The notes beneath the pieces were generated by a model. It saw only the letters and a program-made list of their open reading frames with translations, did no database searches and had not been told where the DNA came from. From Candidatus Moraniibacteriota bacterium (GTDB lineage: Bacteria; Patescibacteriota; Minisyncoccia; Moranbacterales; UBA1568): a stretch of 64,000 nucleotides of DNA. The position numbers and the translations under genes were made by a program. Below are positions 13,220 to 63,974 of this stretch, piece after piece. Where the stretch lies: NCBI GenBank assembly GCA_018061645.1, contig JAGOTT010000001.1, positions 1,090 through 65,089 of the forward strand. Direction: 5' to 3'. Numbering within the stretch: position 1 is the first letter of the stretch; every line of letters begins with the position of its first letter.

Positions 13220-13230
13220 AGAGAAAGATT

Positions 13231-16011: not shown

Positions 16012-16012
16012 T

Positions 16013-16435
16013 ATGCATCTTCGGGTGAAAAAAATCGTTCCGGAGGCGAAGCTGCCGACCCGTGCCAAGGAAGGCGATGCCGGGGTCGATCTCTATTCGG
16101 TCGAGTCGTGTTCGATCGCTCCTTCGGAGCGTCGCGCAGTGCGGACCGGCGTCGCGATGGAAATCCCTCTCGGATTTGTCGGTCTCGTGTGGGACAAATC
16201 CGGTCTTGCGGCGAAAGGCGGAATAAAAACCATGGGTGGCGTGATCGATGCCGGGTATCGTGGGGAAATTCAGGTGATCCTTTCGAACCTTGGTGACGAA
16301 ACGCATGTGATCGCTGCCGGTGATAAGATTGCGCAGCTCCTTATCCAGCACGTCGAACTGTTTCCGGTCGAGGAGGTCTCGGATCTGTCGGATTCGGAGC
16401 GCGGCACGGACGGGTTTGGCAGCACCGGCAGGTAA
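16013..16435 (+). CDS. dut: dUTP diphosphatase
   Basis: About 140 aa. Motifs AGVDLYS, GLVWDKSGLA, IDAGYRGEI, RGTDGFGSTG. Confidence 0.85.
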   Translation: MHLRVKKIVPEAKLPTRAKEGDAGVDLYSVESCSIAPSERRAVRTGVAMEIPLGFVGLVWDKSGLAAKGGIKTMGGVIDAGYRGEIQVILSNLGDETHVIAAGDKIAQLLIQHVELFPVEEVSDLSDSERGTDGFGSTGR

Positions 16436-16438
16436 ATT

Positions 16439-16500
16439 GCTTCATTGTTATATGGTTGCATTGTTGGAAGAAACAAGTTCTTGTTTTCAACAATGAAGCA
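16439..16500. terminator. Long AT-rich hairpin between dut and gatB (GCTTCATTGTT...AACAATGAAGC with nested GAAACAAG/CTTGTTTC)
   Basis: 11-bp outer stem plus 8-bp inner stem. No clean T-run, so the terminator role is inferred. Confidence 0.4.
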
Positions 16501-16532
16501 GTGCGGCAATGTAACAATGTTATCATGGAGCC

Positions 16533-41989: not shown

Positions 41990-43288
41990 ATGGACATCAT
42001 TCTTCTTTCTCTCGGAGATTTTTTCCGCGAAATAAACCGGGCGTTCTCGCTTCTCGGCGACGTCTGGTATTTCCTGTTTCCGCCCATCCTCTATCCGCTC
42101 TTCAAGATATTCTGGATGGATCATATCCAGAACCGGTACGTCGGTACCCTCTCCTACGTGCTGCTTGAGATCATCCCGCCGAAGGAGATGGAAAAGAGCC
42201 CGAAGCCCATGGAATCGGTTTTTTCGGGTCTTGTCGGTGTCGCAAAAGGCTACAGCGTCGTCGAACAATTCGTCCAGGGGCAGTTTCCGGCATCGTTCTC
42301 GCTCGAAATCGCGAGCGAGGGCGGGGAGGTGCACTTCTATGTCAGGACCCAGAAAGGATTCCGCAACCTTGTGGAAGCCCATTTTTATGCCCAGTATCCG
42401 GATATGGAAATCATGGAGGTTCCGGATTATATCGGCAATGTCCCGGTGACGGTTCCGAACAACGAATGGGATCTGTGGGGAACCGACTTCAAGTTGACGA
42501 AACCGGATCTGTATCCGATCCGGACATATCCGTCATTCGAGGAGGATGTGACGGGAAAGATGATCGACCCTTTGGCGGGTCTCATCGAATCAATGGGGCG
42601 GCTTTCGCCCGGTCAGAACATCTGGTTCCAGATGATCATCTCTCCGGAGGAGGATTCATGGTACAAGAAAGGCCAGGCGACCGTGGACGAATTCATCGGA
42701 AAACCGAAAAAGGAATCGACGAGCATGTTCGGGATGATATGGCACGATCTTCTTGATGTCCTTTCGAACATCATTCCCGGACTGATTTCCGGAACGGCGT
42801 TCTCGACGCTCGAGAAAAAGGCGGATGCCAAACAGGATCAGCCGCTCGAGTTCCGGCTTTCGCCGGGACAAAAGGATGTGCTGAAAGCGCTCGAACGCAA
42901 TCTCGGGAAACAGATGTACAGGACGAAGATGCGCATGCTCTATGTCGGGAAGCGGGACGGGTTCGATAAGTCGTTCGTCTCCATGTTCATGGGATCGCTC
43001 AAGCAGTTCAACGACATGAGTCTGAACGGATTCGCTCCGGAAGCCGACTCGAAGACCTATGCGCAGTATCTGTTCGTGAACGAGCGGCTGCGGTACCGCC
43101 AGAGGCGGATCTTCCGGCGGTACATATCACGCGATCCCGATCCGACAGGGAAGATGTTCGAGCTTTCCATCGAGGAGCTCGCGACACTGTTCCATATGCC
43201 GGACTTCTCCGTGATGGCGCCGGCTCTGGTCCGTGTCGCGGCGAAGCGGTCGAGTGCGCCTGCCAATCTTCCTATTCTTGAGGATTAA
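41990..43288 (+). CDS. Membrane-anchored partner protein of the downstream ATPase (hypothetical)
   Basis: 432 aa with an N-terminal TM hairpin. The downstream gene starts 10 nt after its stop. Confidence 0.5.
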   Translation: MDIILLSLGDFFREINRAFSLLGDVWYFLFPPILYPLFKIFWMDHIQNRYVGTLSYVLLEIIPPKEMEKSPKPMESVFSGLVGVAKGYSVVEQFVQGQFPASFSLEIASEGGEVHFYVRTQKGFRNLVEAHFYAQYPDMEIMEVPDYIGNVPVTVPNNEWDLWGTDFKLTKPDLYPIRTYPSFEEDVTGKMIDPLAGLIESMGRLSPGQNIWFQMIISPEEDSWYKKGQATVDEFIGKPKKESTSMFGMIWHDLLDVLSNIIPGLISGTAFSTLEKKADAKQDQPLEFRLSPGQKDVLKALERNLGKQMYRTKMRMLYVGKRDGFDKSFVSMFMGSLKQFNDMSLNGFAPEADSKTYAQYLFVNERLRYRQRRIFRRYISRDPDPTGKMFELSIEELATLFHMPDFSVMAPALVRVAAKRSSAPANLPILED

Positions 43289-43297: not shown

Positions 43298-45382
43298 ATG
43301 TCCGATCAGAACGATATCAGTTTCTTCGCACGAACGAACTTCCGGAACCAGGAACGGATTTTCGGCATCAAGGAGGACGATCGGCGCCGACACATGTACG
43401 TGATCGGAAAGACCGGCATGGGGAAGACGAACCTGCTCGAGAACCTCGCCATCCAGGACATCAAGCATGGCAAGGGGATCGCGTTCATCGATCCTCACGG
43501 AGATACCGCCGAGAAGCTCATCCGGGCGATTCCTTCGGACCGGATCAACGACGTCATCTATTTCAATCCGGCTGACCAGGATTTCCCGATCGCGTTCAAC
43601 GTCATGGAGAACGTGAACTCGGAGTACAAGCATCTCATCGCGTCCGGTCTCGTCGGCGTGTTCAAGAAACTCTGGGCGGATTCGTGGGGACCTCGGCTCG
43701 AATACATCCTCCGGAACGCGATCCTCGCGCTCCTCGAGTATCCGGGATCGACCCTGCTCGGAGTCACGCGCATCCTCGTCGACAAGGATTATCGCGAGAA
43801 GGTCGTCGCGAAAATCACGGATCCGGTCGTGCGTGCGTTCTGGGTGGACGAGTTCTCGAAGTGGAACGACCGCGTGCTTCAGGAAGTCATCTCTCCGATC
43901 CAGAACAAGGTCGGACAGTTCCTCTCGACTTCGCTTATCCGAAACATCGTCGGTCAGACGACGTCGTCGTTCGATGTGCGCGAAGCCATGGACAGCGGCA
44001 AGATCCTTATCATGAACCTGTCCAAGGGTCGCGTCGGCGAGGATGCGAGCGCGCTCATCGGAGCGATGATGATTACCAAGATCCAGCTTGCCGCCATGGA
44101 ACGCGTCGACATGCCGGAGGAGGAGCGGAAGGATTTTTATCTCTATGTCGACGAGTTTCAGAACTTCGCGACGGAGTCGTTCGCGAACATCCTCTCCGAG
44201 GCGCGGAAATACCGGCTCAGCCTCATCCTCGCGAACCAGTACATCACCCAGCTCGACGAGAAAGTGGCGGATGCGGTCTTCGGTAACGCGGGAACGATCA
44301 TTGCCTTCCGTGTCGGCGCGGCAGACGCGGAGATCCTCGAGAAGGAATTCGATCCGGTCTTTCTCATGAACGACATCGTCAACCTGCCGAAATACAACAT
44401 CTACCTCAAGCTCATGATAGACGGCATCGCCGGTGACGCGTTCTCCGCGACCGTGCTTCCCCCGATTTCCCTTCAGGAGACGGCTGAGAATGAGGAGAAG
44501 GTGATCCGCATCTCGCGGGAGCGGTATGCGTCTTCGAAAAAGGAAGTCGAAGACAAGATAAGGCGGTGGAGCGGTATGCTTACCGAAGACGAGCGTGCGG
44601 AACTTCTCCGAAAGAAGGCATTGCCGATATCACATCCCATCGTGTCGCAGAGGAGTCCGACAGTTGTGCCGAAGCAGCCGGTATCCTTGTCTGCGAAACC
44701 GATAGTCGCATCATCAAAACCGAAAAGTGCGTTCGCCATAAGATATCCCCGTGAGACGGAGGAGGAGCCGAAGTCGGCTGTCGCGGAGGATCCTGCGGAT
44801 GTTCCGGAACCGATCGTTGCGGCTCCGGTTCCGGCCGAAGTGACAGTTTCCGTTCCGGAATCCGTACCTATGGAAACACCGGAACCTCTTCGGGACGAAT
44901 CCGCACTCCAGACGGAATTCGAGCGGGCACTTTCCGTCGCGGAGCAGGTCGGGGACGAGGTATCCGAAAAAACGATGTCCCTACCGGAAGTGGAGCCGGA
45001 AGAACGTCCGACATACCCGTCGCTCTGTGATACCTGCGGCATGGAGATCCGCGTTCCGTTCCAACCGGACGGATCCCGTCCGACCTTCTGCAAGGAGTGT
45101 TTCAAGAGCCATCAACGGACGATGGCTCGCGCGCGTGAGGACCGTTCGAAACCGAAGACGGTTGCTTCCGGCGTTCAGAGGAAGTCGGGTTTCGAGCGGA
45201 AGCAGGATGTCCCGTATTCGCGCACGACTGAGGCACGTGTCTACGCTTCGGCCGACGAGCCGATCTCGCTTTCGCGGGCATCGCTCGTCGCTCCGAAAAA
45301 ATTCAAACCGCTGCATAAGCGTCCGGATCCGGACCTCGGTGCGGTCCGGGACATACTGAAAAACAGGAAACCGAAAAAATGA
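43298..45382 (+). CDS. FtsK/HerA-superfamily P-loop ATPase resembling type IV coupling proteins (TraD/VirD4-like), with disordered linker and C-terminal Zn-ribbon
   Basis: Walker A VIGKTGMGKTNLL closely followed by a DPHGD motif (compare DPKGE in VirD4/TrwB). Walker B LYVDEFQNF. No N-terminal TM helix. C-terminal CDTCG...(17)...CKEC. Confidence 0.5.
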   Translation: MSDQNDISFFARTNFRNQERIFGIKEDDRRRHMYVIGKTGMGKTNLLENLAIQDIKHGKGIAFIDPHGDTAEKLIRAIPSDRINDVIYFNPADQDFPIAFNVMENVNSEYKHLIASGLVGVFKKLWADSWGPRLEYILRNAILALLEYPGSTLLGVTRILVDKDYREKVVAKITDPVVRAFWVDEFSKWNDRVLQEVISPIQNKVGQFLSTSLIRNIVGQTTSSFDVREAMDSGKILIMNLSKGRVGEDASALIGAMMITKIQLAAMERVDMPEEERKDFYLYVDEFQNFATESFANILSEARKYRLSLILANQYITQLDEKVADAVFGNAGTIIAFRVGAADAEILEKEFDPVFLMNDIVNLPKYNIYLKLMIDGIAGDAFSATVLPPISLQETAENEEKVIRISRERYASSKKEVEDKIRRWSGMLTEDERAELLRKKALPISHPIVSQRSPTVVPKQPVSLSAKPIVASSKPKSAFAIRYPRETEEEPKSAVAEDPADVPEPIVAAPVPAEVTVSVPESVPMETPEPLRDESALQTEFERALSVAEQVGDEVSEKTMSLPEVEPEERPTYPSLCDTCGMEIRVPFQPDGSRPTFCKECFKSHQRTMARAREDRSKPKTVASGVQRKSGFERKQDVPYSRTTEARVYASADEPISLSRASLVAPKKFKPLHKRPDPDLGAVRDILKNRKPKK

Positions 45383-45388: not shown

Positions 45389-46234
45389 ATGAACCGACGA
45401 TGGGGAGTATTTTTGTTCGTGATCCTGTTTTCAGGTGCCCTATTTTCATATCGCGATGCGCTGTCCGTCATGGCGGACGATTTTTCATTGTACGTGAAAT
45501 ACCGTGCGGGTGCGGATTTTTATCGTGATCATTCGGGAAACGACTTCAGAACGGACGAACGATGGCTTTCCGCGCTCCTTTTCGAATATCGTCGGACGAT
45601 TCTCTCGGGGGAGGTCGAACGCGTTTCGCATGACCCCTTCCTTCGCGTTCTCGGGGAGCGGAAACGCTCCTTCTCCGTGTTCGACTCCATGGATCCGGTA
45701 CGATCGGAATCCGGGTACGGGTATCGCGTTAGTTCGGAGTATCGCCGTTTCCTTGTCGATCCGTGGGATGAAATCCTGCTCAAGCCGCTGTATTGCGATG
45801 TGTACGGATATTCCGATCGCGATTTTTCCGCGCTTGCCTCGATCCCGCTTGATGGCGGGTATGCCGACACCCACAAACTCCTCGGTCTGCTGTTTCTCCG
45901 CGAGCAGGGATGCTACGATCGGGCGATGCTCGATCGGATGATCCGTCAGGGATCGGAACGTATCGCCGGTTCCGCCGAATCGGATGCCGGATGGAGCGAT
46001 CTTTCCTCGGAAAGGATCGTGTTTCTTTACTGGGCCGGTGAAGGATCTCTCGTGAAGCGCGAGTGGGTGGAGCGGATAGCCGATGCGCAGGGAAGCGACG
46101 GAGGATGGTCGGATCCGGACTTCGGCTCCGGGTCGAACGCTCATTCCACGGGGCTTTCCCTTCTCGCTATCCGGTATTTTCTTGAAGGGAAGACCCCCGT
46201 GTCATTCTTTGCCCCGCTTGATAGGGTGGAATGA
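45389..46234 (+). CDS. Secreted protein with prenyltransferase/squalene-oxidase-like repeat
   Basis: Signal/anchor WGVFLFVILFSGALF. SDGGWSDPDFGSGSNAHSTGLSLLAI matches the DGGW...T..ALLAL repeat signature. Confidence 0.35.
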   Translation: MNRRWGVFLFVILFSGALFSYRDALSVMADDFSLYVKYRAGADFYRDHSGNDFRTDERWLSALLFEYRRTILSGEVERVSHDPFLRVLGERKRSFSVFDSMDPVRSESGYGYRVSSEYRRFLVDPWDEILLKPLYCDVYGYSDRDFSALASIPLDGGYADTHKLLGLLFLREQGCYDRAMLDRMIRQGSERIAGSAESDAGWSDLSSERIVFLYWAGEGSLVKREWVERIADAQGSDGGWSDPDFGSGSNAHSTGLSLLAIRYFLEGKTPVSFFAPLDRVE

Positions 46235-46827: not shown

Positions 46828-47892
46828 ATGAATATGGAAACAGTCAGACGCTATTGGGACGAGTTTCGCATCGGATCGTGGTTGCTCGGCATGGGGAGCG
46901 CGCTCGCGATCGCTGTCATCGTCGGGCTTCTGTTCGCGTATGTGCTGCCGGCTTCCTGGGGTATCACGGTGAAGGTGCGCGGAGCCCTTCCTTTTCCTGT
47001 GGCATCCATCGGGATGAATGCCGTCGCTTCTTTCGATGATGTCGCGGAAAATCTCGCATCCGTCCGTCGTTTCTACGAAGCCCAGGATTTTTCCTCGGTC
47101 GGAATGCGTGTCGATTTCTCGACGCCGGACGGGGAAAAGCGGCTCAAGATCCGCGAGAAGGAGATTTTGAACAAGATGATCGAGGACGAGGCTCTCCGGT
47201 TGATTGCCGCCCGATCCGGGATACGCGTTTCGGAAGAAGATGCGACTCGGGCCGTTTCGGAACATCTCCGATCGATCGGTGGAGAAGAGAAAGGTGCTGC
47301 GGAAAAACTTTCGCGGCTCTACGGATGGAACCTTTCCGAATTCGAGGAAAAAGTGGTACTTCCGAGCCTGTATGAGGAAGCATTGCGGAAGCGGTTCGAG
47401 GCTGACGCGAATCAGTTCGCGGCCGCGAAAAACAAGGCGGAACAGGGAAAGAAACTTCTCATCGACGGACGGAGCTTTGCGGATGCGGCAAGCGAGGTTT
47501 CCGAAGGACGAACCGCGAAGCAGGGCGGATCCATGGGATGGTTTTCCTATGAAAATCTCATCCTGCCGCTCCAGGAGCCGGCGAAGTCGCAGAAGATCGG
47601 CGAGCCCGGAGAAATCATGGAGAGTTCGCTCGGATTTCACATTCTTCAGGTCGACGAGCGGAAGACCGAGAAAGGGAAGGAACTCGTCCGGTTGAGTCAA
47701 ATTTTCGTCGCGAAAAAGACGTTCGGGGATTGGCTTGCCGATGAGATGAAGAATCTCGGAATAAGGGTGTTCGCCCCGGAATACGAATGGAACAACGATA
47801 CGGCGCGTGTCGATTTCAGGAACGCGGATTTCCGGAAATTCGAAAAGGAGATACTCGAGAAGTCCGAGGGTGACGCCTCGGTGATATTCTGA
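46828..47892 (+). CDS. PpiC-type peptidyl-prolyl isomerase (SurA/PrsA-like)
   Basis: N-terminal anchor. Parvulin domain GGSMGWFSYENLILPLQE...GFHILQV. Confidence 0.7.
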   Translation: MNMETVRRYWDEFRIGSWLLGMGSALAIAVIVGLLFAYVLPASWGITVKVRGALPFPVASIGMNAVASFDDVAENLASVRRFYEAQDFSSVGMRVDFSTPDGEKRLKIREKEILNKMIEDEALRLIAARSGIRVSEEDATRAVSEHLRSIGGEEKGAAEKLSRLYGWNLSEFEEKVVLPSLYEEALRKRFEADANQFAAAKNKAEQGKKLLIDGRSFADAASEVSEGRTAKQGGSMGWFSYENLILPLQEPAKSQKIGEPGEIMESSLGFHILQVDERKTEKGKELVRLSQIFVAKKTFGDWLADEMKNLGIRVFAPEYEWNNDTARVDFRNADFRKFEKEILEKSEGDASVIF

Positions 47893-47983: not shown

Positions 47984-49291
47984 ATGGAAAACCAGGAAAA
48001 TGAAGTCGTGAAACCCGATGTTTCATCCGAAGAGAAGCCCGTCGGCGGATGCTGTGGGAACGGCAGACATCCCGTCTGTGGAAGGGCGCGATGCATGTTC
48101 CGGCTGCTCGGTATAGTGGTGATCGCTGCCGCCGCCGGCGTATTCGGGGCGGCGTATTCGCCGATGATCCTTTCGGGCGTGAATCTTCCTTTTTTGTCCG
48201 TTTCCGCTCCGGAGAGTATTGCGACGCGCGTCGTCGAGGAACGTGTCGTGCAGGAGGATTCGCTTATCATCGATCTCGTGGAGAAATCGTCCCCGGCGGT
48301 CGTTTCCATCGTCGCGACCAAGGACGTCCCGAAGGCTCGAAACTTCGGGCCGTTCGGTGGATTCTTTTTCTTCCAGGATCCGTATCAGTCGCAGGACGAG
48401 GACGGATCGCAGGATATGACCGAGAAGCGGCGGGTGGGGAGCGGTACCGGATTTCTCGTCTCGGAGGACGGCATGATCGTGACGAACAAGCATGTCGTGT
48501 CGGACGAGACCGCGGAGTATACTGTGCTGCTCGACGGAGGGAAGGAATACCAGGCTACGGTGCTTGCGCGCGATCCGGGACACGACCTCGCGGTCATCAA
48601 GATCGATGGGACGGGATTTCAGACGATCGGACTCGGGGATTCGGATTCCATAAAGGTCGGGCAGACGGTGATCGCGATCGGCAATTCGCTCGGTGAGTTC
48701 TCGAACTCTGTCTCGCGCGGCATCATCTCGGGGCTCGGACGGAGCGTGACCGCTGGAAGCGGATTCGGCGATGCCGAGACGCTGACCGATATCATCCAGA
48801 CCGACGCAGCAATCAACCCGGGGAATTCCGGCGGACCATTGCTCGATGTTTCCGGGAAGGTGATCGGTATCAATGTCGCGGTGGCGCAGGGCGCGCAGAG
48901 TGTCGGGTTCGCGATTCCGGTGAACCAGATAAGGCGGACGGTCGAGGATGTGAAAGCGACCGGGAGAATCTCGACGCCCTATATCGGTGTTCGTTACGCG
49001 ATCCTCGACGAGGCGGCGCAGAAGGAGAACAGCCTTCCCTTCGCGTACGGCGCGATCGTGCTTCGCGGGACGAAACCGACCGAGTTCGCCGTCATTCCGG
49101 GGTCTCCGGCGGACAAGGCGGGCATCGTGGAAAACGATATCATTCTCGAGATCGGCGGACAGAAAGTCGATACCGAACATCCGCTCGGAAACATTATCGC
49201 GGGTTACCGCCCCGGTGACGAGGTGACGCTCAAGCTCTGGCACAAGGGCGAAAACAAGGAGGTGAAGGTTACGCTCGAGGAACGGAAGTGA
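47984..49291 (+). CDS. htrA: HtrA/DegP-family serine protease with PDZ domain
   Basis: Catalytic motifs TNKHVV, D, GNSGGPLLD. C-terminal PDZ. N-terminal TM. Confidence 0.85.
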   Translation: MENQENEVVKPDVSSEEKPVGGCCGNGRHPVCGRARCMFRLLGIVVIAAAAGVFGAAYSPMILSGVNLPFLSVSAPESIATRVVEERVVQEDSLIIDLVEKSSPAVVSIVATKDVPKARNFGPFGGFFFFQDPYQSQDEDGSQDMTEKRRVGSGTGFLVSEDGMIVTNKHVVSDETAEYTVLLDGGKEYQATVLARDPGHDLAVIKIDGTGFQTIGLGDSDSIKVGQTVIAIGNSLGEFSNSVSRGIISGLGRSVTAGSGFGDAETLTDIIQTDAAINPGNSGGPLLDVSGKVIGINVAVAQGAQSVGFAIPVNQIRRTVEDVKATGRISTPYIGVRYAILDEAAQKENSLPFAYGAIVLRGTKPTEFAVIPGSPADKAGIVENDIILEIGGQKVDTEHPLGNIIAGYRPGDEVTLKLWHKGENKEVKVTLEERK

Positions 49292-49311: not shown

Positions 49312-49347
49312 GAAGGGGATCCGCTTGGATCCCCTTTTTGTTTTTTG
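49312..49347 (+). terminator. Rho-independent terminator after htrA
   Basis: GAAGGGGATCC-GCTT-GGATCCCCTT plus TTTTGTTTTTTG. Confidence 0.7.
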
Positions 49348-49427
49348 TACGGAAAACCATTTTCAAATCGTTTTTTTTTTTGCTAAAATGAAGGGAAAGA
49401 ACCGATGCAAAACGAAAATGGCACCAT

Positions 49428-52400
49428 ATGGGAACTGGGAGATTGTTCGGTATAGCATCGTTATCTGCGGGAATCATTTTCGCGGTGTTTTTTCTTGTGC
49501 GGGATATCGTTCATGACGAAACCTTTTCGCCTGGGTCGGTGAATATCTCGGCGGCTCCGAGGACGAATGAAGCATCCGCCGGATCCGTGCTTTCGGAGAC
49601 GGATTCGCAGGAAGGTCGATCGGAGACTGCCGGTGATGAGGACTTCCTGCGCCGGTTACTGGGTGTGAGCGGGAACGGTATCGATATCCATATTGACGAG
49701 TTTCCCCGTCACGGCATCGAGGCCGAACACATTGATTCGAACTCCGTCACGAGCCGGACGATTCGCGACCGTACTATCGAGGGTATCGATATCGACAAGG
49801 GAGCTGATCTTGATATCGGTTCTTTGAATGTCTCCGGCGATGTGGATATCGCTGGTATCCTCGAGTCAGGCGGGCTTATCGTGTCCGGCGACGTGGATAT
49901 CCTCGGCGATCTCTCTGCGGTGGGACTCGATATCTCCGGCGATACGACTCTCCAAGGCGATCTCACGGTCGCGGGTTCCATTTCCGGTTCTTTCTCCGGT
50001 TCTTTCGCGCCGACCGGGGATGTGGATATGCTCGGGAATATCATGACGAATATCGGCGATAGCGGAACGGACTTCACTTCGTCCGGAGGTCTCACGCTTG
50101 CCGGTGCTCTCACGCTCACCCCGCTTACTCCGGGGTCGATTCCGTTTATCGGTATCGCAGGCGTCATGAGCCAGGACAACGCGAATCTTTTTTGGGACGA
50201 CACGAGCAATCGGCTGGGTATCGGCACGACAAGCCCCGAGGCAACCCTTGATGTCCGTGGTCCTCTAGGTGTTTTCAGGGATATAACTGGCACAGGCATA
50301 GTCTCTGATTATTATTACGGAGTTGATTATCTAACATCTGTTTTTCAAATAGATGCGAACATTCAATATGGGATAGCCTATGTCGGAGCAGGTAATAATC
50401 ATTATTCAGTATGGCAAGAATATATAAAAACTCGGTCAACTGATGGAACCACCTATGCCATCGTTCACGATGGCGACGAACTCGGAAGATTCAATTTTCA
50501 TGGTGACGACGGGAGTAATTTAGCACAGGGTGCCATGATACAGGTTAGTGTAGATGGAACGCCTGGGGAAGATGATATGCCAGGGAGGATAAAATTTTGG
50601 ACAACACCAGCCGGAGCAAACTTTCCCTTAGAAAGGATGACCATTAAAAGCACTGGCAACGTCGGCATCGGGACAGCGAGTCCGACGACAAAACTTGATG
50701 TTGTAGGAAACATAAGGACAAATGGATATTTCAACGCAGGGGATGTGACAATGTTAAATGGAACTGCGCTCTACAGTGCAAATGCACCAAGTTTTGATAT
50801 TTACGAAAGTAATGCCAGTAGCAAACTATATATATCAGCAAGTGGTGGACTAATCTTGGGGCTAAAAAGTGATGGGACGAATACCGGCAACGTCGGCATC
50901 GGGACGGCGAGCCCATCTACGAAACTTGAAATATCGGGGGATGTTATTGGTAGCGGTGTCGCTTTGACAGTAAAAAATCTGGCAACCAGCGCATCATATG
51001 CACGACTTAATCTGGTTGCAAATGGCAAAACATCAGACATATTCTTTGATGGTTCTGGAGGTTTTATTTCCGGAGGAGGTTTGATTTTCCGCTCGAATGG
51101 AGATCCGCTACATTTTTTCACGGGTTCAAATAATCGAGTTACCATCAACAGTCATGGCAAAGTCGGTATCGGTGACACCACTCCCGACGGACTGCTCGAC
51201 ATCGAACCGACCGGAGCGGCGACTGCCTCCTCCTATGGGATCAATCTCTCGAATCTTACCACTAACGCGACGACCGACGGTGTCAACAAATATGGTGCCT
51301 ACCTCACCTCGACTGGTGCCTGGACCGGAGGTGGCGGTACCGCGACCAACAACTACGGACTCTATGTCGATACTGTTTCCGGCGCAGACAACAACTACGG
51401 AGCCTATATAGCCGGCAACGTCGGTATCGGGACGACAAGTCCGGGGGCGAAGCTGGACGTCAGTGGAAATTTTCAACTTAGTGGAGACCTAGTTATGACC
51501 GGTGTCGCCTCAAAGATCTGGGGGGATACGGATTTCAGTTATTTGCAGTTATATAATGCTTTTGGACAAGGCGAGACACAAATTGGCAATGGACATACGA
51601 ATGGTGGAATAAGATTCTTCACAGCTCCGACAATTGCCAAAACTTATGTTGAAGCAATGAGAATAACGCCAACCGGCAACGTTGGTATCGGAACGACAAA
51701 TCCGGGGACTGCTTTAGATGTTGGTTCGGGTAATATACAAACTACAGGAACAATTAAAGGCGTATCGTTAATCGCTAACGGGACAAGCAATTTCAAACTT
51801 GTTACTGCAAACGCCCCTGCTTCTTGGAGTGGAAATGGTCCAGCCGGAGTGCTACAGCTTCAAGATATTAACGGAAATTACAGCACTACGATCAATTCCA
51901 ACTCAAGAGGATTGCAAACACTCGGATTGTATGTGGATGGCCTTGGCGTTAATAATTATATTGCAGGCAACGTCGGTATCGGCACGACGAGCCCAGGTTC
52001 AAAACTTTCGTTTGTGGCGGATACGATCGCGGCTGGCGGAATAACTTTTGGAAGTGATACCAATCTGTACCGCTCCTCCGCTGATATCCTTAAGACGGAT
52101 GACACTCTTTCGGTCGGAACGCAGTTGCTTACGAATGTGGTGAAGAAACTCGACAGCTCAAAATTCATGCTTGTCGGGAGCGGGAGTGATTTGTATGTAG
52201 GCGGAAGCAGCGGCGTGGGTCAATATGCGAACGCTATTTTTGATATATCCGGCAATGTTGGTATCGGCACGACAAGTCCATCGTATAAGCTTGATGTTGC
52301 AGGGTCGATTCGCACCGCATCGGGACAAGGAATATTTACCGGACTGTCAGCGTTAGCTCAAAATGCCAATGGTCTTATTGTGTTTGGTGGTGATAATGGT

Positions 52401-54035
52401 GGCACCGTGTACGCGAGGGGCGATGTCGCTGGCGCAGACAATAACTTAAATTTGCAAGCCTTTGATGATATTAATTTTGATACGTTTCCGAGCGGTTCTC
52501 CTGTGACTGGTATGGTCATAAAAAAGACCGGCAACGTCGGTATCGGGACGACGAGTCCGACGGCGTTATTGGATTTAAACTCAACAAATGGCGGTGATAC
52601 TGATATATTAAGAATTTCAAATCCTTCGGCAAGCGCCGGATCTATTTATGGATTAGCTTGGCGAGATACCGCAAATAACAAGACGTATGCTCGTATCGCC
52701 TCATCATACGGTGCTTCATATGTCAATTCCTATTTGTCCTTAAGCGTGGCGGATAGTACGGAGACGCTACAGGAAAGAATGAGAATTGATAAATCTGGCA
52801 ATGTCGGTATCGGCACGACAAGTCCGAGTGAAAAACTGGATGTAAATGGTCACATTAAGGTTAATAACTATATCAAGCTGGGTAATAATACGGGTGGTTT
52901 CGTTGATCCAAACGGAAATCCTTTCTTATATACGACTTCAAGCGGTCTCGAAACACGAGTAAATGCCTATTATACAGGCGGGTTTGTTTCACTTTATTCC
53001 GGTTCCCCGAATGCGGAAAGGATGAGAGTGACAAGCGCAGGCAACGTCGGTATCGGCACGACGAATCAATTCGGCTCCGGTTCCGGCGTGCTCGCGCTCG
53101 GCAATGCCACGACCAACCCGACCACGACCCTTACGAACGCCGCGCTCCTCTATGCTACCGGAGGGGAGATGTATGTCTACGACGCGGCGGGAAACGCGAC
53201 GCAGATCTCCCCGCATGATGATATGGGGTTGTGGCACTACAACTCCACGAACACGAGAATGGGGAAGACGCTCGAGGTGAGCATGGAGCTCCTTACTAAG
53301 GATCTCGATCGGATTCTCGGCGGCGGATACGTGTACGAGAACGGTGATCGTCTGTTCTCCGGAGAGAACCGGATCGATTCGCTCTCGCTTCGGACCGACG
53401 AATATGCGACGACCCTTGGTGCGTTCCGGGCATCCGTCGATGAGAATCTCCTTTCCGTGAGTGCGAGTCTGTCGGACTCCGGAAAGGATATTGACGAGCT
53501 TACCGAAAAGATCGAAGGCCTCGACGCAAAGATGGCGAGCACAGAGGAAAGCCTCGAAGATCGGATCGTCGTACTCGAGAACGGCGTGACGTCCCGAGAC
53601 ACGCAAATTTCCGCACTCATGGATTTCTATTCCGCACTCGACCTGGGGAACGTGCTTTTGCTTGATATCGACGGGAACCTCACGATTCCGTCAGGAGACC
53701 TCCTGATCCGGAATATCGAAGCACAGGGGACGATCCGTGCCGAGGACGTGGAGGCGGAAGACGGTATCACTGCCGGAGGCATCGTCGCGGGCGCCGCTAT
53801 CGCCGCGGGGGAGGAATCTTCCGGATCCGGGACGCTCAAGGCGGGGGACGACAGGACCGTCATCGATACGGAGTATGCCAACGAAGACGCCAAGATATTC
53901 ATCACGATCAAGGGTTCCCCACACGGGAAATCCCTTTATGTCGATGATATCGAGGAGGGCGAGAGCTTCACGGTGAAAGTGGACGGAGATGTCTCCGACA
54001 AGGATATCGATTTCTTCTGGTTCGTGCTTCGGTAG
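49428..54035 (+). CDS. Giant cell-surface protein with about 10 tail-fibre-like GNVGIGTTSP(S/G)xKLDV repeats and C-terminal coiled-coil/beta domain
   Basis: 1535 aa. N-terminal anchor FGIASLSAGIIFAVFFLV. The repeat motif is characteristic of phage tail-fibre and bacterial fibrous adhesin repeats. Confidence 0.8.
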   Translation: MGTGRLFGIASLSAGIIFAVFFLVRDIVHDETFSPGSVNISAAPRTNEASAGSVLSETDSQEGRSETAGDEDFLRRLLGVSGNGIDIHIDEFPRHGIEAEHIDSNSVTSRTIRDRTIEGIDIDKGADLDIGSLNVSGDVDIAGILESGGLIVSGDVDILGDLSAVGLDISGDTTLQGDLTVAGSISGSFSGSFAPTGDVDMLGNIMTNIGDSGTDFTSSGGLTLAGALTLTPLTPGSIPFIGIAGVMSQDNANLFWDDTSNRLGIGTTSPEATLDVRGPLGVFRDITGTGIVSDYYYGVDYLTSVFQIDANIQYGIAYVGAGNNHYSVWQEYIKTRSTDGTTYAIVHDGDELGRFNFHGDDGSNLAQGAMIQVSVDGTPGEDDMPGRIKFWTTPAGANFPLERMTIKSTGNVGIGTASPTTKLDVVGNIRTNGYFNAGDVTMLNGTALYSANAPSFDIYESNASSKLYISASGGLILGLKSDGTNTGNVGIGTASPSTKLEISGDVIGSGVALTVKNLATSASYARLNLVANGKTSDIFFDGSGGFISGGGLIFRSNGDPLHFFTGSNNRVTINSHGKVGIGDTTPDGLLDIEPTGAATASSYGINLSNLTTNATTDGVNKYGAYLTSTGAWTGGGGTATNNYGLYVDTVSGADNNYGAYIAGNVGIGTTSPGAKLDVSGNFQLSGDLVMTGVASKIWGDTDFSYLQLYNAFGQGETQIGNGHTNGGIRFFTAPTIAKTYVEAMRITPTGNVGIGTTNPGTALDVGSGNIQTTGTIKGVSLIANGTSNFKLVTANAPASWSGNGPAGVLQLQDINGNYSTTINSNSRGLQTLGLYVDGLGVNNYIAGNVGIGTTSPGSKLSFVADTIAAGGITFGSDTNLYRSSADILKTDDTLSVGTQLLTNVVKKLDSSKFMLVGSGSDLYVGGSSGVGQYANAIFDISGNVGIGTTSPSYKLDVAGSIRTASGQGIFTGLSALAQNANGLIVFGGDNGGTVYARGDVAGADNNLNLQAFDDINFDTFPSGSPVTGMVIKKTGNVGIGTTSPTALLDLNSTNGGDTDILRISNPSASAGSIYGLAWRDTANNKTYARIASSYGASYVNSYLSLSVADSTETLQERMRIDKSGNVGIGTTSPSEKLDVNGHIKVNNYIKLGNNTGGFVDPNGNPFLYTTSSGLETRVNAYYTGGFVSLYSGSPNAERMRVTSAGNVGIGTTNQFGSGSGVLALGNATTNPTTTLTNAALLYATGGEMYVYDAAGNATQISPHDDMGLWHYNSTNTRMGKTLEVSMELLTKDLDRILGGGYVYENGDRLFSGENRIDSLSLRTDEYATTLGAFRASVDENLLSVSASLSDSGKDIDELTEKIEGLDAKMASTEESLEDRIVVLENGVTSRDTQISALMDFYSALDLGNVLLLDIDGNLTIPSGDLLIRNIEAQGTIRAEDVEAEDGITAGGIVAGAAIAAGEESSGSGTLKAGDDRTVIDTEYANEDAKIFITIKGSPHGKSLYVDDIEEGESFTVKVDGDVSDKDIDFFWFVLR

Positions 54036-54063
54036 CTCTCTTTCGCTTGATCCGTATCTTGTC

Positions 54064-54097
54064 GAGTTACGTAACCGGTTACGTAACTCTTTTTTTG
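54064..54097 (+). terminator. Perfect 26-bp palindrome plus T-run (GAGTTACGTAACCGGTTACGTAACTC TTTTTTTG)
   Basis: Immediately downstream of the giant gene. Confidence 0.65.
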
Positions 54098-54106
54098 TAA
54101 CAAATG

Positions 54107-54142
54107 AGAAAAAGAAAAAGCCGACCCAGGGTTCGGATCGGC
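54107..54142 (-). terminator. Minus-strand rho-independent terminator (GCCGATCCGAACCCTGGGTCGGC followed by TTTTTCTTTTTC on the minus strand)
   Basis: Supports a minus-strand gene ending near 54159. Confidence 0.5.
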
Positions 54143-54158
54143 GAAAGCGATGGTTCCA

Positions 54159-54530
54159 TTACCCGATGGTCTCGATCTTGGTGATCGGGTCGGCGAAAGT
54201 CCGGGAAAAATAAGGATTCCGCCCATCGGGATCGCAGATGAAATTCCATTGCGTGCTATCCAGCCGGAACCCTGCCAGAATCCAGGTGACTGGTCGGTGT
54301 CCATACCATCCGGAAGGACGCCGCGTGTCATCGCCGGTCGTGTATCCGTCCGGATAACACGCGATATCGGTCCAGCCTTCCTGCCAGGCGCGGTGGACGG
54401 GGTGTGGTGCCTCGCGGAGCATCTGCGAGATTTTCTGGATGAGAGCGAATTTTTCATGTCGTACGAAATCTCTTTCCGTTCGCATCGATTTTCTCCTTGT
54501 GAAGGGGCGAAGACGACGAAATGGTGCCAT
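54159..54530 (-). CDS. Hypothetical protein
   Basis: 123 aa. Minus strand chosen over the overlapping plus-strand ORF because of the terminator orientation. No motif. Confidence 0.35.
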   Translation of the reverse strand: MAPFRRLRPFTRRKSMRTERDFVRHEKFALIQKISQMLREAPHPVHRAWQEGWTDIACYPDGYTTGDDTRRPSGWYGHRPVTWILAGFRLDSTQWNFICDPDGRNPYFSRTFADPITKIETIG

Positions 54531-54683
54531 TCCAAGGGGAAACTGTCAATTTTTTTCTGGCACTCTCAACATGAGATTGCCAACTTTTTCATTTTATGAT
54601 AACTTGAAGACAAGCGAGTCAGTCAAGTTCTTAAAGTCCATCAGGTTCGTAAAGTTTGAGACAGACCTCTTGTCTTTGCGGGC

Positions 54684-54727: not shown

Positions 54728-57343
54728 ATGAATATCAATATCTTCACGCAGAAAAGCCAGGAAGCCCTGCGGCGGGCGCAGGAGAACGCGATGTCGCGGG
54801 GGAACCCGGAAATCCGTCCGGAGCATCTTCTCTACGCGCTTCTCATCCAGGAGGATTCCATCGTGCCGTCCGTGCTCGCGGCGATCGATGCGGACATTGA
54901 ACACCTGAAAGGAGGGGTGCTCGGCGCGATCGACGTCTTGCCCAAAGGTTCCGCCGGAGCACCGGGACAGACGTTCGTCGCGCCGTCGACCGCGAAGATC
55001 CTCGAGGCCGCGGAAAAGGAGATGGCGAAGATGGGCGATCGGTTCGTCTCGACCGAACATCTCCTCCTCGCGTTCCTCTCCGAGGCGGGATCGATGAAGG
55101 ACGCTCTCGGGAAGGTGGGAGCGACGTATGATGCCGTTCTCAAGGCGCTCTCGAAGCTTCGCGGATCCGCGCGGGTCGAGAGCGATACGCCCGAGGCATC
55201 GTACCAGGCACTCGAAAAGTATACGCTCAATCTCACGAAGCTCGCCCGCGAAGAGAAGCTCGACCCGGTCATCGGTCGCGACGAGGAGATCCGTCGGGTG
55301 ATGCAGGTCCTTTCGCGGCGGACGAAAAACAACCCGGTACTCATCGGCGAGGCGGGGACGGGAAAGACCGCCATCGCGGAGGGGCTCGCTCAGAGGATCG
55401 TCTCAGGCGACGTGCCGGAGACGCTCAAAGGGAAGGAAATCATCTCGCTCGACCTCGGAGCGCTCCTCGCGGGGGCGAAGTTCCGCGGGGAGTTCGAGGA
55501 GCGGCTCAAGGCGATCCTGAAGGAAGTGGAGTCGTCCGCGGATCGTTTCATCCTCTTCATCGACGAGATCCATACGCTCGTCGGCGCCGGGGCGACCGAG
55601 GGCGCGCTCGATGCGTCGAACATGCTCAAGCCCGCCTTGGCCCGGGGGAAGCTCCGTACCATCGGCGCGACGACGACCCGGGAATATCAGAAATACATCG
55701 AGAAGGACGCAGCGTTCGAGCGGCGGTTCCAGCCGGTGTATGTCTCCGAGCCGTCCGAGGACGACGCGCTCGCGATTCTTCGCGGCATCAAGGAGAAATA
55801 CGAATTGCATCACGGCGTGCGCATCGAGGACGACGCGCTTTCCGCCGCAGTGAAGCTTTCGAAGCGGTACATCACCGAGCGGTTTTTGCCGGACAAGGCG
55901 ATCGACCTCGTCGATGAGGCGGCGTCCCTGCGGAAGATGGAGATCGACTCCATGCCGACGGAACTCGATGCGCTCGAGCGGAGCATACGGCGGATGGAGA
56001 TCGAGAAACGCGCGCTCGAGAAGGACGATGACGTGAAATCGAAGAAAAAAGCCGGGGAGATCGATCGCGAACTCGCCGAACTTCGTGAGAAATCGGGGAA
56101 GCTTTCCGTCCAATGGAAAGGGGAGCGGGACCTGATCCAGGGACTCCGGAAGCACAAGGAGGAGATCGACCGGCTCCGCGGTCAGGCGGACGCCGCCGAG
56201 CGCGAGGGAAAACTTGACCTGGTCGCCGAAATCCGATATGGACGTATCCCGGAGACCGAGAAACTGCTCTCGACCGAAGGAAAGAAGCTCGCGAAGCTCC
56301 AGAAACAGGGATCCATCCTGCACGAGGAGATCACGGAGGAGGATATCGCGGCAGTCGTCTCGAAGTGGACCGGCGTCCCCGTCTCGAAGATGCTCGAGCG
56401 TGAGTCCGGAAAGCTCATCGCGATGGAAGATGAGCTCGGCAAGCGGGTCGTCGGCCAGTCCGATGCGATCCGGGCAGTGTCGAACGCGATCCGTCGGAGC
56501 CGCGCGGGTCTCGGGGAGGAGGGCCGTCCGATCGGCTCGTTCATCTTCCTCGGATCGACCGGCGTCGGGAAGACCGAACTCGCGAAGGCGCTCGCTGCGT
56601 TCCTGTTCGACGACGAGCGTTCGCTCGTCCGGGTGGACATGAGCGAATTCATGGAATCGCATTCGACTGCGAAGCTCATCGGATCGCCGCCGGGGTATGT
56701 CGGATACGATGAAGGGGGACAGCTTACGGAAAAGATCCGTCGCCGCCCGTACGCGGTCATCCTGTTCGACGAGATCGAGAAGGCGCACAGGGATGTTTCG
56801 AACATACTTCTGCAGATCCTCGACGATGGCCGGCTCACCGACGCGAAGGGGCGGACGGTATCGTTCAAGAACACGGTCATCATCATGACATCGAACGTCG
56901 GTTCGGACGTTCTCGCCAGAGCGGACGATCTCGGGTTCCGGGCGACGAAACGGAAAGGAGAGGAACTTCGGGAAGACGAGATGCGGACCAAGGTGATGGC
57001 GAGTCTCAAGGAATCGTTCCGGCCCGAATTTTTGAACCGCATCGACGAGATCGTCATCTTCCATCCGCTCGGGCGGGATATGATCCGCAGGATCGTCGAT
57101 ATCCAACTCGCGCTCGTTTCGGAACGGCTCTCAGTGAAGGAGATTTCCGTGGAGTTTTCCGAAGCGCTCCGGGAAGAGCTCGCGAAACGGGGGTTCGACC
57201 CGTTCTATGGTGCGCGACCTTTGAAGCGTGTCATCCAAAACGAGATACTCGATCCGCTTGCGCTCGAAATCATCGAAGGGAAGGCGGTTCCCGGGAAACC
57301 GATCGTTGTCGACGTGAAGAAAGGAAAAATCGTGTTCGGATGA
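54728..57343 (+). CDS. clpB: Chaperone ClpB (two AAA+ modules)
   Basis: Internal Met start [14 protein letters not shown]. Walker [16 protein letters not shown] and [14 protein letters not shown], plus middle coiled coil. Confidence 0.95.
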
Positions 57344-62267: not shown

Positions 62268-63974
62268 TCACCACGTCACCCGGAACACCTCGTCGATGTT
62301 CGTCGTGCCGAGGATCGCTTTCGCGAGGCCGTCGATGCCGAGCGTCTTGAACCCGTCGTCTTCGAGGATTTTCTTGAAAGCGGCGTCATCTTTCCCGGTC
62401 GTGGTCGCCTGGCGGACCCGGTCGTTCATTTCGAGCACTTCGAAGATGCCGACCCGACCGGAGTATCCCGTGAAATCGCAACGCGAACAGCCCTTCTCTT
62501 TGAAGAGCGGTATCTCGCCGAACGATGAGATCTGCTCCGGGATGATGCCGTAGTCTTTGAGAACGCGGATGGCGTAGGTCTCGTCGGTGAAACTCCGCAT
62601 GTTCTCGAGAGCCTTCCCTTCCGGATAATACTGTTCCCGACAGTGCGGGCAGAGCTTCCGGACGAGGCGTTGTGCGATGACGAGTCGGAGGGTGGATGCG
62701 ACGAGATACGGTTCGACACCCATGTCGAGAAGCCGCGGTATGGTTCCGATGGCGTTGTTCGTGTGGAGCGAGGAAAAGAGCGGCCGTCCAGTGAGGGATG
62801 CACGTACGGCGGTCGATGCGGTTTCCCCGTCGCGGATCTCGCCGACCATGACGATATCCGGATCCTGGCGAAGGATGGCGCGGAGTCCCGCGGGGAAGGT
62901 GAATTCGACTCCGGGGTTGATCTGCATCTGGGTGATGCGGGGCATGGTGTATTCGATCGGGTCCTCGATAGTGCTGATGTTGAGGACGCTCGCGCTCTTC
63001 GAGCCGATTTCCTGGAGGAACGTGTAGAGGGTCGTGGTCTTTCCTGAACCGGTCGGCCCCGTGATGAGGATCATCCCGAACGGTTTCGCGATATATTCCT
63101 GGATGAGGGCGTAGTCCTGTTCGAGCAGTCCGATATGTGCGAGATTGAGGATGACATTATCCTTGAGGAGCACGCGCAAGACGGCTTTTTCTCCCCACAT
63201 GGTCGGAGCGAGCGAGATACGGAGGTCAATCGGCTGCTCGTCCTTCTTGATGCGGATGCGGCCTTCCTGCGGTGTCCGGCGTTCGTCGAGTTCGAGCGAA
63301 GCCAGTACCTTGAGATAGGATATGAAGCGTTGATAGACGGAAATCGGAAGCACCGCGATTTCCCGGAGGAATCCGTCGATGCGGAACCGGACGACGAAGT
63401 CGGTCTCATACGGTTCGAGGTGGATGTCCGAGACCTCGAACGTCTGCGCGAGATCGAGGAGCGATTCGAAAAGACCGACCCCGGACTGTTCGTTGTATTT
63501 GAGATCCGCCTCGCTGTCATCGGTGTAGATCTGGAAGTTCGAGAGGGCGCGTCCGACGATGTCCTGCGTCGTTCCCTGATACAGGATGAGCCCCCGTCGG
63601 ATGGCGTTCTCGAGCGCGACGAACGATTTTACGGGCATGTTCGTCATCCGTTCTATCTCGGTCACCGTTCCGGCGTTTCTCGGATCGGCGAATCCGACGC
63701 AGAGCTGCCCCTCCTCGATCGCGAAGGGGAGCGAGAGGTGTTCAGCGACGAATTTCTCCGGGAGAAGCGCGAGGGTCGATTTGTCGATCGCGCTCATCTT
63801 GAGGTCGATCGCGGGAATCCCGAAATGCTCCGAGAGGAGATCGAGAAAGTATTGCCGTGAAACGAGATGTTCTTCAGCGATGACCTTTTCCAGCGGAACG
63901 CCGGCATCTGCGGCTTTTTTCTCGGCTGCGGCGAATTCTTCCGCCGTCATGATTCTTCCTTGTCCGGCGAACAT
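62268..63974 (-). CDS. pilB: Type IV pilus assembly ATPase PilB (GspE family)
   Basis: 568 aa. N-terminal GspII_E domain. Walker A ILITGPTGSGKTTTLY. Tetracysteine CPHC...CSRC. Confidence 0.9.
   Translation of the reverse strand: MFAGQGRIMTAEEFAAAEKKAADAGVPLEKVIAEEHLVSRQYFLDLLSEHFGIPAIDLKMSAIDKSTLALLPEKFVAEHLSLPFAIEEGQLCVGFADPRNAGTVTEIERMTNMPVKSFVALENAIRRGLILYQGTTQDIVGRALSNFQIYTDDSEADLKYNEQSGVGLFESLLDLAQTFEVSDIHLEPYETDFVVRFRIDGFLREIAVLPISVYQRFISYLKVLASLELDERRTPQEGRIRIKKDEQPIDLRISLAPTMWGEKAVLRVLLKDNVILNLAHIGLLEQDYALIQEYIAKPFGMILITGPTGSGKTTTLYTFLQEIGSKSASVLNISTIEDPIEYTMPRITQMQINPGVEFTFPAGLRAILRQDPDIVMVGEIRDGETASTAVRASLTGRPLFSSLHTNNAIGTIPRLLDMGVEPYLVASTLRLVIAQRLVRKLCPHCREQYYPEGKALENMRSFTDETYAIRVLKDYGIIPEQISSFGEIPLFKEKGCSRCDFTGYSGRVGIFEVLEMNDRVRQATTTGKDDAAFKKILEDDGFKTLGIDGLAKAILGTTNIDEVFRVTW

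Follow-up and report, generated by a model that had tools for sequence, protein, structure and literature searches.

A predicted membrane-anchored fibre protein of a high-GC Moranbacteria genome, related to Bdellovibrio MAT fibres and phage tail fibres, with signs of cassette exchange at a repeated motif

The window, as we call the whole 64,000-nucleotide stretch analysed here, comes from contig JAGOTT010000001.1 of a Candidatus Moraniibacteriota bacterium and contains a gene for a long fibre protein (Table 1). We consider it probable that this chromosomal gene of a high-GC Moranbacteria bacterium encodes a surface fibre of the MAT (mosaic adhesive trimer) type, similar to phage tail fibres, and that it has been diversified by exchange of cassettes at a repeated motif. 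This reading is carried by the architecture of the protein, by its homology to solved fibres, by a mosaic of codon usage along the gene and by breakpoints located in the motif. The 1535-residue product is a 100% match to P0001, which is NCBI entry KBD19_00285, annotated as 'hypothetical protein' on a 130-kb contig of a Candidatus Moranbacteria bacterium metagenome-assembled genome (MAG). Moranbacteria are placed by NCBI within the Patescibacteria/Parcubacteria group.

The protein contains 11 motifs of the GIG type, at residues 264, 413, 490, 580, 666, 753, 850, 945, 1038, 1127 and 1208. Eight of them read GNVGIGT(T/A)(S/N)P and one GKVGIGDTTP; the first copy is RLGIGTTSP and the last, GNVGIGTTNQ, is devoid of the PxxKLDV tail. 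Nine intervals between copies span 77-97 residues and the first one 149. The preliminary description of this DNA had counted about ten copies spaced 70-120 residues apart; the repeat itself stands, with 11 copies, and only the spacing was slightly off. At the nucleotide level, DNA of about 20-30 nt that hardly varies between copies, GGCAACGTCGGTATCGGSACGAC, codes for the motif. A scan of the window with the degenerate pattern GGNAAYGTNGGNATHGGNAC gave nine matches, all within the fibre gene, as compared to 0 expected from shuffled sequences. An exact 28-nt tract links motif copies within the gene (51963 and 53037) and an exact 30-nt tract links the gene with L004, one of the related loci described below. 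Such lengths of 28-30 nt are close to the minimum for RecA-type homologous recombination. Outside the motif the modules are weakly alike and the best relative of each is a different database protein, so that the shaft is, as judged from these comparisons, not the product of a recent tandem duplication.

The family to which the fibre belongs was then examined. Pfam and NCBIfam returned nothing meaningful for the full protein. Tail-fibre families of PHROG (PHROG 9942 and 18345) matched with E-values of 3.7e-60 and 1.7e-41. About 2900 related database proteins were found, many of them 2000-2700 residues long and many carrying Peptidase_S74; some, from Kaiserbacteria, Gracilibacteria, Bacteriovoracaceae and Verrucomicrobia, are named 'tail fiber domain-containing protein'. 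Distant phage relatives, annotated as tail fibres or 'chaperone of endosialidase', belong to cyanophages, pelagiphages and Thermus phages. Within the PDB, sequence relatives were limited to MAT fibres of Bdellovibrio bacteriovorus, plus a marginal sixth match to MyRF. The phmmer E-values were 4.7e-8 for 8OND (Bd2133), 4.2e-7 for 8OML, 9e-5 for 8ON4 and 5e-4 for 8OL4. A profile of the 11 modules gave 2e-16 for 8OND, 2.4e-9 for 8OL4, 3.8e-7 for 8OML and 5.7e-7 for 8OJN.

In the alignment with Bd2133, 'AGNVGIGATAPTAKLEV' faces 'TGNVGIGTASPTTKLDV' of the fibre, and ten copies of (N)VGIGTTSPxxKL align residue for residue with 'NVGIGATAPTAKL' of Bd2133 and 'NVGVGVGAPTAKM' of 8OML. The same motif forms the capping loop of the trimeric beta-helix in MATs, with a consensus published as V-G-G/N-pi-x-x-P-x-x-x-L (Caulton et al. 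2024, PMC10769870). The printed consensus is one residue shorter between V and P than either sequence and we relied on the direct alignments instead. MATs have been described as trimeric surface adhesins resembling phage tail fibres; they are mosaic in build, a conserved end holding the fibre on the cell and the opposite end bearing diversified or swappable tips, and they split into S74 and non-S74 groups (PMC10769870). In the fibre protein, an S74 chaperone domain was looked for and rejected (no PF13884 match even at E<=10, no S[DE]xRxK motif). Because it has no S74 domain, the fibre corresponds, at the level of sequence, to the non-S74 type. By comparison, an S74-like SDxRxK motif ends 35 of the 120 best homologues. 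The features of MATs that are present include a shaft homologous to the solved MAT shafts, the repeated capping-loop motif and a variable, independently folding C-terminal tip, whose two units occur separately in other proteins and are exchanged between loci. A collagen-like trimer was also discarded, there being no G-x-y repeats and the homology being to beta-helix fibres. Overall, the PHROG matches, the Bdellovibrio MAT relatives and a single N-terminal transmembrane (TM) segment agree with the tail-fibre-like fibrous surface protein proposed from the sequence alone; of the two folds then suggested for checking, a beta-helix/beta-meander like that of MAT and S74 fibres was retained and a collagen-like one was not.

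The gene has a mosaic composition. Windowed GC was 0.54-0.59 at both gene ends and 0.42-0.50 in the centre, and the difference sits at synonymous sites. The GC content at third codon positions (GC3) was 0.61 for residues 1-285, 0.41 for residues 286-1190 and 0.72 for residues 1191-1535, the host reference having a mean of 0.726 and a standard deviation of 0.09 (24 host genes of the window, 60-codon windows). Half of the fibre windows (25/50) fell under the host 1st percentile. In the fibre centre, the usage of Ile-ATA was 0.33 vs 0.10 in the host and that of Leu-TTA 0.21 vs 0.01, with Leu-CTC at 0.14 vs 0.55; at both ends of the gene the codons are of the host type. Module by module, GC3 was 0.30-0.32 in modules 1-3, a host-like 0.64 in module 4 (51186-51413), 0.39 in module 5, 0.32 in module 6, 0.52 in module 7 (51996-52250) and 0.35-0.40 in modules 8-10, after which it rose up to 0.78 (range of the 3' end, 0.67-0.78). 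As followed with 20-codon GC3, the steps are in register with the motifs. Core motif codons had a GC3 of 0.68 as compared to 0.38 for the codons between motifs, and they were uniform, the first Gly being GGC in 10/10 copies and the Ile ATC in 11/11. The only other coding stretch of low GC3 in the window is a short dnaX linker.

Related loci allowed the comparison to be extended. In low-GC Candidate Phyla Radiation (CPR) loci, the GC3 of the shaft between motifs tracks that of the host (L002 0.29, L006 0.33). It lies far below the host value only in high-GC loci (0.41 in the window, 0.53 in L001 and 0.53 in L004, with hosts at 0.73-0.82). We considered that fibre shafts might converge on a GC3 of about 0.4 whatever the host, and dropped this idea, shaft GC3 staying near the host value in the low-GC loci. 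Since the deficit is confined to high-GC loci, the data favour import of the shaft from those members of the lineage, the majority, that have a lower GC. Numbers of 33-45, which we take to be GC values, appear in many Moranbacteria MAG names at NCBI.

All comparison loci are metagenome contigs; L003 begins about 70 nt past the last motif and L004 inside a motif. L001 is a JGI contig of 54% GC encoding protein P0002. Its DNA homology to the window is confined to 49709-50236 and 53039-53453. In the stalk, identity to L001 was 74.8% over 528 nt (blastn), and 75% over 165 residues with P0002 (blastp). P0002 is 96% identical over residues 1205-1312, only 44% identical in the helix, and unrelated between the stalk and residue 1205. 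L004, a Logan contig encoding P0121 (sample SRR26425183), has 96.3% nucleotide identity to the window over 53043-54077, rising to 100% in the final 400 nt. The modules upstream of this region are unrelated, and downstream of the fibre gene lies a gene for a nicotinate phosphoribosyltransferase (NAPRTase) instead of clpB. The 100%-identical tract stops at 54077, inside the 3' terminator-like hairpin. L003 is syntenic with the window; its ClpB protein is 95% identical, the fibre C-terminus only 85%. This contig (CAYRYX010000061.1) is labelled as an 'uncultured Bdellovibrionales bacterium' MAG. In view of the syntenic, 95% identical ClpB shared with a Moranbacteria window, it is probably mis-binned.

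Breakpoints could be located by anchored alignments. At junction J1, identity to L001 drops from 0.80-0.90 to about 0.3 directly past GGTATCGGCACGACAAGCCC, with a coincident fall of GC3 from 0.7 to 0.3. At junction J2, identity to L004 rises from about 0.2 to 0.87 at 53043, L001 switches at 53039, and GC3 increases from 0.35 to 0.78. The switch between identities of about 0.85 and about 0.25 takes only a few bases and falls in motif codons, at 50236-50238 for J1 and 53039-53043 for J2. A low-GC3 centre between host-like ends is also found in the independent contig L001; in L004, which starts inside the gene, GC3 switches from low to host-like at the last motif. The preliminary description had proposed host-like GC-rich ends, an AT-rich centre with GC-rich islands encoding the motif, and acquisition of the middle by cassette recombination or horizontal transfer. 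The sliding-window calculation it called for bears out the composition, windowed GC and GC3 being in agreement and motif codons standing out from their surroundings. Cassette exchange is in turn supported by L001, L003 and L004, which have in common with the window only ends with host codons, by breakpoints in motif codons and by foreign-looking codons of the centre. As to the suggested check of variation between strains, the centre does differ between loci, as seen through fragmentary metagenome contigs only.

Some further features of these loci were recorded. The best relative of modules 1 and 4 is P0005, a 1012-residue protein of L002; its gene overlaps the start of the next ORF, which carries Peptidase_G2 and K1-lyase_C. 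In this region of L002 (1604-5795), the two ORFs may belong to a single fibre gene that is interrupted by a frameshift or an assembly error. In the low-GC CPR contig L006, adjacent genes at 6500-11416 and 11640-17669 encode giant surface proteins of 1638 and 2009 residues. The first has a collagen-like G-x-y stretch, capping-loop motifs and the same C-terminal beta domain as the fibre, and its tail is made of repeated 'EGC.DS.A.NYN.EA..D.SCEY' cysteine modules.

We then turned to the two ends of the protein. Residues 6-24 form the only Kyte-Doolittle 19-mer above 1.6 (peak 2.5), as expected from the N-terminal membrane anchor proposed earlier. The stalk that follows has few relatives. The C-terminal 340 residues were modelled with AlphaFold2 using a 48-sequence alignment from a search of representatives, with a mean predicted local distance difference test (pLDDT) of 84.4; an earlier run with 16 sequences reached 59.6, too poor to use. 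The coiled coil and the compact domain that had been described at the C-terminus correspond in this model to a helix (residues 1315-1403) and a six-stranded beta-sandwich tip (residues 1465-1534), joined by a linker of low confidence (residues 1404-1462). The helix is compatible with a trimeric coiled coil, of which a monomer model is no proof. With Foldseek, the tip resembled tailspike and depolymerase C-terminal domains in the PDB (7EEA, 9K4A; E about 0.01) and viral K1-lyase_C proteins in BFVD (E 4.9e-5). The corresponding Pfam match, to PF24146 (K1-lyase_C), was below threshold (15.8 bits vs a cut-off of 27; E 0.019).

The beta domain preceding the helix (residues 1196-1313) had no Pfam match or model and no sequence relative in the PDB. 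Over about 110 residues its consensus reads GNVGIGTTNQFGxGxGVLSLGNAxTNP...YDAAGNATQISPHD..GEW.FYSKN..TGR...V.ME.L.K. This domain forms the extreme C-terminus in most relatives, which include a great number of secreted or fibre proteins with nothing else in common. An exhaustive HMMER search with the 340-residue C-terminal query returned 1866 cluster representatives at E<=1e-3, 460 of them at E<=1e-10. The HMMER results divide the C-terminus into two separable units, the domain of residues 1196-1305 and the coiled coil plus tip of residues 1315-1535. As a candidate for the domain family of residues 1196-1312, S74 was rejected, hhalign against S74 domains giving a probability of 1.3%.

The genomic setting was surveyed with Pfam on 20 ORFs spanning 19-64 kb of the window. 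The functions found were DnaE, DnaX, SMC, a sigma factor, peptidyl-prolyl isomerase (PPIase), HtrA, ClpB, a class II aminoacyl-tRNA synthetase, an amino-acid-kinase family protein, PilB and a VirD4-like ATPase. All are cellular; no phage structural, integrase or lysis gene was detected among these 20 ORFs. Rfam gave no RNA element in or near the fibre gene, a single tRNA, 13 kb away from it, being the only Rfam family in the window. With a terminator-like hairpin after htrA followed by a promoter-like site, the fibre gene looks like its own transcription unit. The statement that no phage structural genes flank the gene is therefore borne out by the housekeeping genes around it, and the view that a cell-surface fibre is likelier than a prophage remnant gains support from this context, from the promoter- and terminator-like sites of the gene and from the clpB synteny in L003.

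Table 1. Features of the fibre gene and its surroundings (positions refer to the window)
Feature	Position	Strand	Basis
Fibre gene	49428..54035	+	Single ATG ORF, 1535 aa (ORF list)
N-terminal TM/signal-anchor segment, aa 6-24, LFGIASLSAGIIFAVFFLV	49443..49499	+	Kyte-Doolittle; presumed topology
N-terminal stalk, host-type codons (GC3 0.62), SGDxDIxG-type repeats	49500..50207	+	GC3, blastn, blastp
Junction J1, first motif copy (NRLGIGTTSP)	50208..50237	+	Anchored ungapped alignment, 20-codon GC3
Shaft, ten heterogeneous modules of 77-149 aa, each begun by GNVGIGTTSPxxKLDV capping-loop motif	50238..53036	+	
Core motif DNA starts	50655, 50886, 51156, 51414, 51675, 51966, 52251, 52530, 52797	+	
C-terminal beta-rich domain, aa 1196-1313 (TNQFGSG...ISPHD...W.Y.S.N..G....ME.L.K)	53013..53366	+	AlphaFold2 pLDDT 83-92
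Junction J2, last motif copy (GNVGIGTTNQ)	53037..53069	+	Anchored alignment, GC3, exact repeats
Long alpha-helix, aa 1315-1403, presumed trimeric coiled coil	53370..53636	+	AlphaFold2 pLDDT 90-97
Junction J3, end of L001 DNA homology	near 53453, within helix	+	blastn block end
C-terminal beta-sandwich tip, aa 1463-1535	53814..54032	+	AlphaFold2 pLDDT 89-96
Terminator-like hairpin 3' of htrA	49312-49337	+	Consensus scan only, weak evidence
Promoter-like site, TG-extended TAAAAT	49360-49389	+	Consensus scan only, weak evidence
Terminator-like hairpin and T-run, 29 nt past fibre stop codon	54064..54089	+	Consensus scan
PPIase flanking gene	46828-47892		Pfam
HtrA flanking gene	47984-49291		Pfam
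ClpB flanking gene	54728-57343		Pfam

Other observations concern the surroundings of the gene. In the gap between the fibre gene and clpB, a 520-nt segment (54037-54557) has no counterpart in the syntenic L003, where the gap measures 215 nt. This segment contains convergent terminator-like hairpins at 54064-54089 (+) and 54142-54120 (-) and an ORF of 123 residues (54159-54530, - strand) with no Pfam match. At 43298-45382 (+), 4-7 kb upstream of the fibre gene, lies a gene for a VirD4/TrwB-type coupling ATPase with a C-terminal treble-clef zinc finger, adjoined by two ORFs without any Pfam match (41990-43288 and 45389-46234). A PilB-type T2SSE ATPase with an MshEN domain, as used in type IV pilus assembly, is encoded at 62268-63974 (-), in the same window as pilin-like genes and the fibre gene. 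The pilin-like genes are of type IV and stand in tandem at 2908-3996 (+; 2908-3501 and 3610-3996). They have an N-terminal prepilin segment in common and unrelated C-terminal parts, and the second lies where the GC content of the window is lowest (0.38-0.45 at 3500-4500); the pair thus displays the same pattern as the fibre gene, a conserved end with a foreign-looking variable part. Finally, an ORF at 31906-32946 (+) matched CsoSCA_cat (carboxysome shell carbonic anhydrase) at E 6e-8, with 32.8 bits vs a cut-off of 21.5; the match is weak though above threshold, and unexpected for a CPR genome.

Explanations other than cassette exchange in a cellular gene were weighed. An assembler that crossed the 20-30-nt motif common to co-occurring CPR fibre genes could have stitched foreign low-GC modules between genuine ends, the reading frame being kept since the motif is in frame everywhere. 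Exact tracts of 28-30 nt within and between loci speak for such an artefact, as do the position of the GC3 steps exactly at motifs, including those on either side of the host-like, mid-shaft module 4, and the fact that other assemblies break at the fibre gene (L004 in a motif, L003 shortly past the last one). However, at least two, and probably at least four, compensating mis-joins back to the same contig would be needed, yet the ORF is intact over 1535 residues and the architecture is normal. Common metagenome assemblers generally finish with k-mers longer than exact repeats of up to 30 nt, which also argues against a chimera. In addition, motif codons inside the low-GC3 stretch are GC-rich (0.68) and uniform (GGC, ATC), unlike the motif DNA of the low-GC locus L002, and the composition of centre and ends recurs in the independent L001, with a matching switch in L004. 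We therefore regard an assembly artefact as unlikely. It would be quite unlikely, too, that the low GC3 is a property of repeat-rich fibre genes, due for instance to selection for slow translation and folding of the beta-helix or to relaxed codon selection, with the centre having evolved in place. Such a property would fit L001 and L004, which come from related high-GC organisms and also have shafts below the host value, and it would fit the host-preferred, GC-ending codons of the conserved motif residues, as selection for translational accuracy predicts. But homology between close relatives stops abruptly at motifs, with no gradual decay; L004, 96% identical in nucleotides downstream of the junction, is unrelated upstream of it. 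Moreover, the shaft follows the host in the low-GC CPR loci, so that there is no universal optimum near 0.4, and module 4 is host-like in mid-shaft.

The gene could also be a leftover phage or tailocin tail fibre, that is, a prophage remnant and no cellular adhesin. The strong PHROG tail-fibre matches, the annotation of distant relatives as phage tail fibres or 'chaperone of endosialidase', the resemblance of the tip to tailspike C-terminal domains and the atypical codon usage of the centre would all fit this origin. Against it stand the lack of phage genes among the 20 ORFs and the PPIase, htrA and clpB flanks, with the clpB linkage kept in L003, as well as the host codons at both gene ends. 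An N-terminal TM anchor is not expected of a virion fibre, the S74 chaperone typical of phage versions is absent, and phage matches are only 25-32% identical. Overall, we find a prophage remnant very improbable.

Several points nevertheless weigh against our preferred reading of a cellular fibre diversified at its motif. A hydrophobic segment in the first 100 residues was found in only 15 of the 120 best homologues, which makes the N-terminal TM anchor atypical of the family. The AlphaFold2 models are of monomers only, the trimer being presumed, and the similarities of the tip are weak, both in the PDB and in Pfam. The comparison contigs are fragmentary and yielded no other full-length allele of a closely related strain; C-terminus scans of genome and metagenome contigs returned only L003, L006 and L007, with no complete close allele. 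Only two independent junction positions lie in a motif, and selection for intact modules would place breakpoints at motifs even if exchange were not driven by DNA homology. Finally, a search of 5.8 billion proteins found no donor, the best match of the centre being P0005, with 40% protein identity over residues 237-663; the GenBank phage relatives of the centre are 25-32% identical and IMG/VR gave no close relative.

In the preferred reading, the single N-terminal TM helix would hold the protein in the cell membrane, and the stalk and about ten beta-helix/beta-meander shaft modules, delimited by the capping-loop motif GNVGIGTTSPxxKL, would extend outward. Past the shaft would come the distal beta domain, a coiled coil of about 90 residues and the small tailspike-like beta-sandwich. 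From the TM anchor and the homology, we infer that the fibre is exposed at the surface and binds glycans of another cell; the tip would most likely bind a surface polymer of that cell, for instance of the host of a presumed episymbiont. Motif DNA of about 20-30 nt would act as an in-frame recombination joint, through which the shaft cassette (50238-53040) may have been replaced by lower-GC donor DNA. The 3' unit (53043-54077) may be mobile between loci as well. More speculatively, CPR bacteria or Patescibacteria at large might share a horizontally circulating pool of cassettes for fibre shafts and tips. The motif DNA would then be kept, even at synonymous sites, as a universal in-frame joint, and high-GC Moranbacteria would repeatedly re-tool their host-recognition fibre with modules of lower-GC relatives. 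We hold this wider proposal to be doubtful, if conceivable. If true, the cassette pool would be a cellular counterpart of the swapping of receptor-binding proteins in phages and a candidate determinant of host attachment by episymbionts.

The best-characterised cell-borne devices for recognising other bacteria are the prey-binding, MAT-type fibres of Bdellovibrio. In ultrasmall CPR episymbionts, only type IV pili have so far been implicated experimentally in the recognition and binding of host cells (PMC12206443). Our literature search brought up no report of tail-fibre-like adhesins in CPR bacteria. With a shaft and a tip that appear to be exchanged between related CPR genomes, a membrane-anchored MAT-like fibre would be a candidate determinant of host range that can be tracked in metagenomes. 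It would be of value mainly as a candidate through which host recognition by episymbiotic Patescibacteria can be approached. The analysis also flags a widespread C-terminal domain of about 110 residues, with hundreds of cluster representatives and without a Pfam model. Family, fold and the principle that mosaicism is guided by motifs are already known; the gene is a new, CPR-borne example, in whose codon usage the exchange of shaft and tip has left a clear footprint. It has, in addition, a TM anchor and an unannotated combination of C-terminal domains.

The closest known systems are compared here. The non-S74 subgroup of Bdellovibrio MATs includes Bd2133, Bd1334, Bd2439, Bd2734 and Bd2740 (PMC10769870; PDB 8OND, 8OML, 8OL4, 8OJN, 8ON4). 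The fibre and these MATs have in common a homologous shaft, the same capping-loop motif, a long modular fibre (about 1000-1500 residues) with no S74 domain, and one end retained on the cell with the other exchangeable, and in both cases the gene is chromosomal, in a bacterium living on other bacteria. In contrast, the fibre would be anchored by a single N-terminal TM helix and not by a folded MAT N-terminal domain, the available PDB chains of MATs being C-terminal fragments. Its C-terminus (beta domain, 90-residue helix and tailspike-like sandwich) matches no solved MAT tip, and its host is a CPR bacterium and no predator. Here the whole shaft, and not the tip alone, was apparently swapped, with a signature in codon usage.

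As compared to S74 phage fibres and tailspikes such as the L-shaped tail fibre pb1 of T5 (4UW8) and the K1F endosialidase (3GW6), the fibre has the same repeat family (PHROG 9942, 18345) and a tip fold resembling tailspike C-terminal domains, but neither the S74 domain nor its Ser-Lys motif nor a phage context, and it carries a TM anchor. To the K1-lyase_C domain (PF24146) of phage depolymerases, a resemblance may lie in the helix and small beta-sandwich at the extreme C-terminus, which gave the best Foldseek matches in BFVD; unlike in these enzymes, no lyase or beta-helix catalytic domain precedes the tip. Motif-mediated mosaicism of the distal tail-fibre genes of T-even phages was reportedly described by Tetart, Desplats and Krisch in 1998 (J Mol Biol 282:543). 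In those genes as in the present one, short conserved motifs within adhesin genes would serve as recombination points for the swapping of specificity segments. The T-even case concerns phage genes (gp37/gp38) and different motifs, whereas the Moranbacteria fibre is encoded by a cellular gene in which exchange, by a presumably similar mechanism, would have taken place across genomes of different GC.

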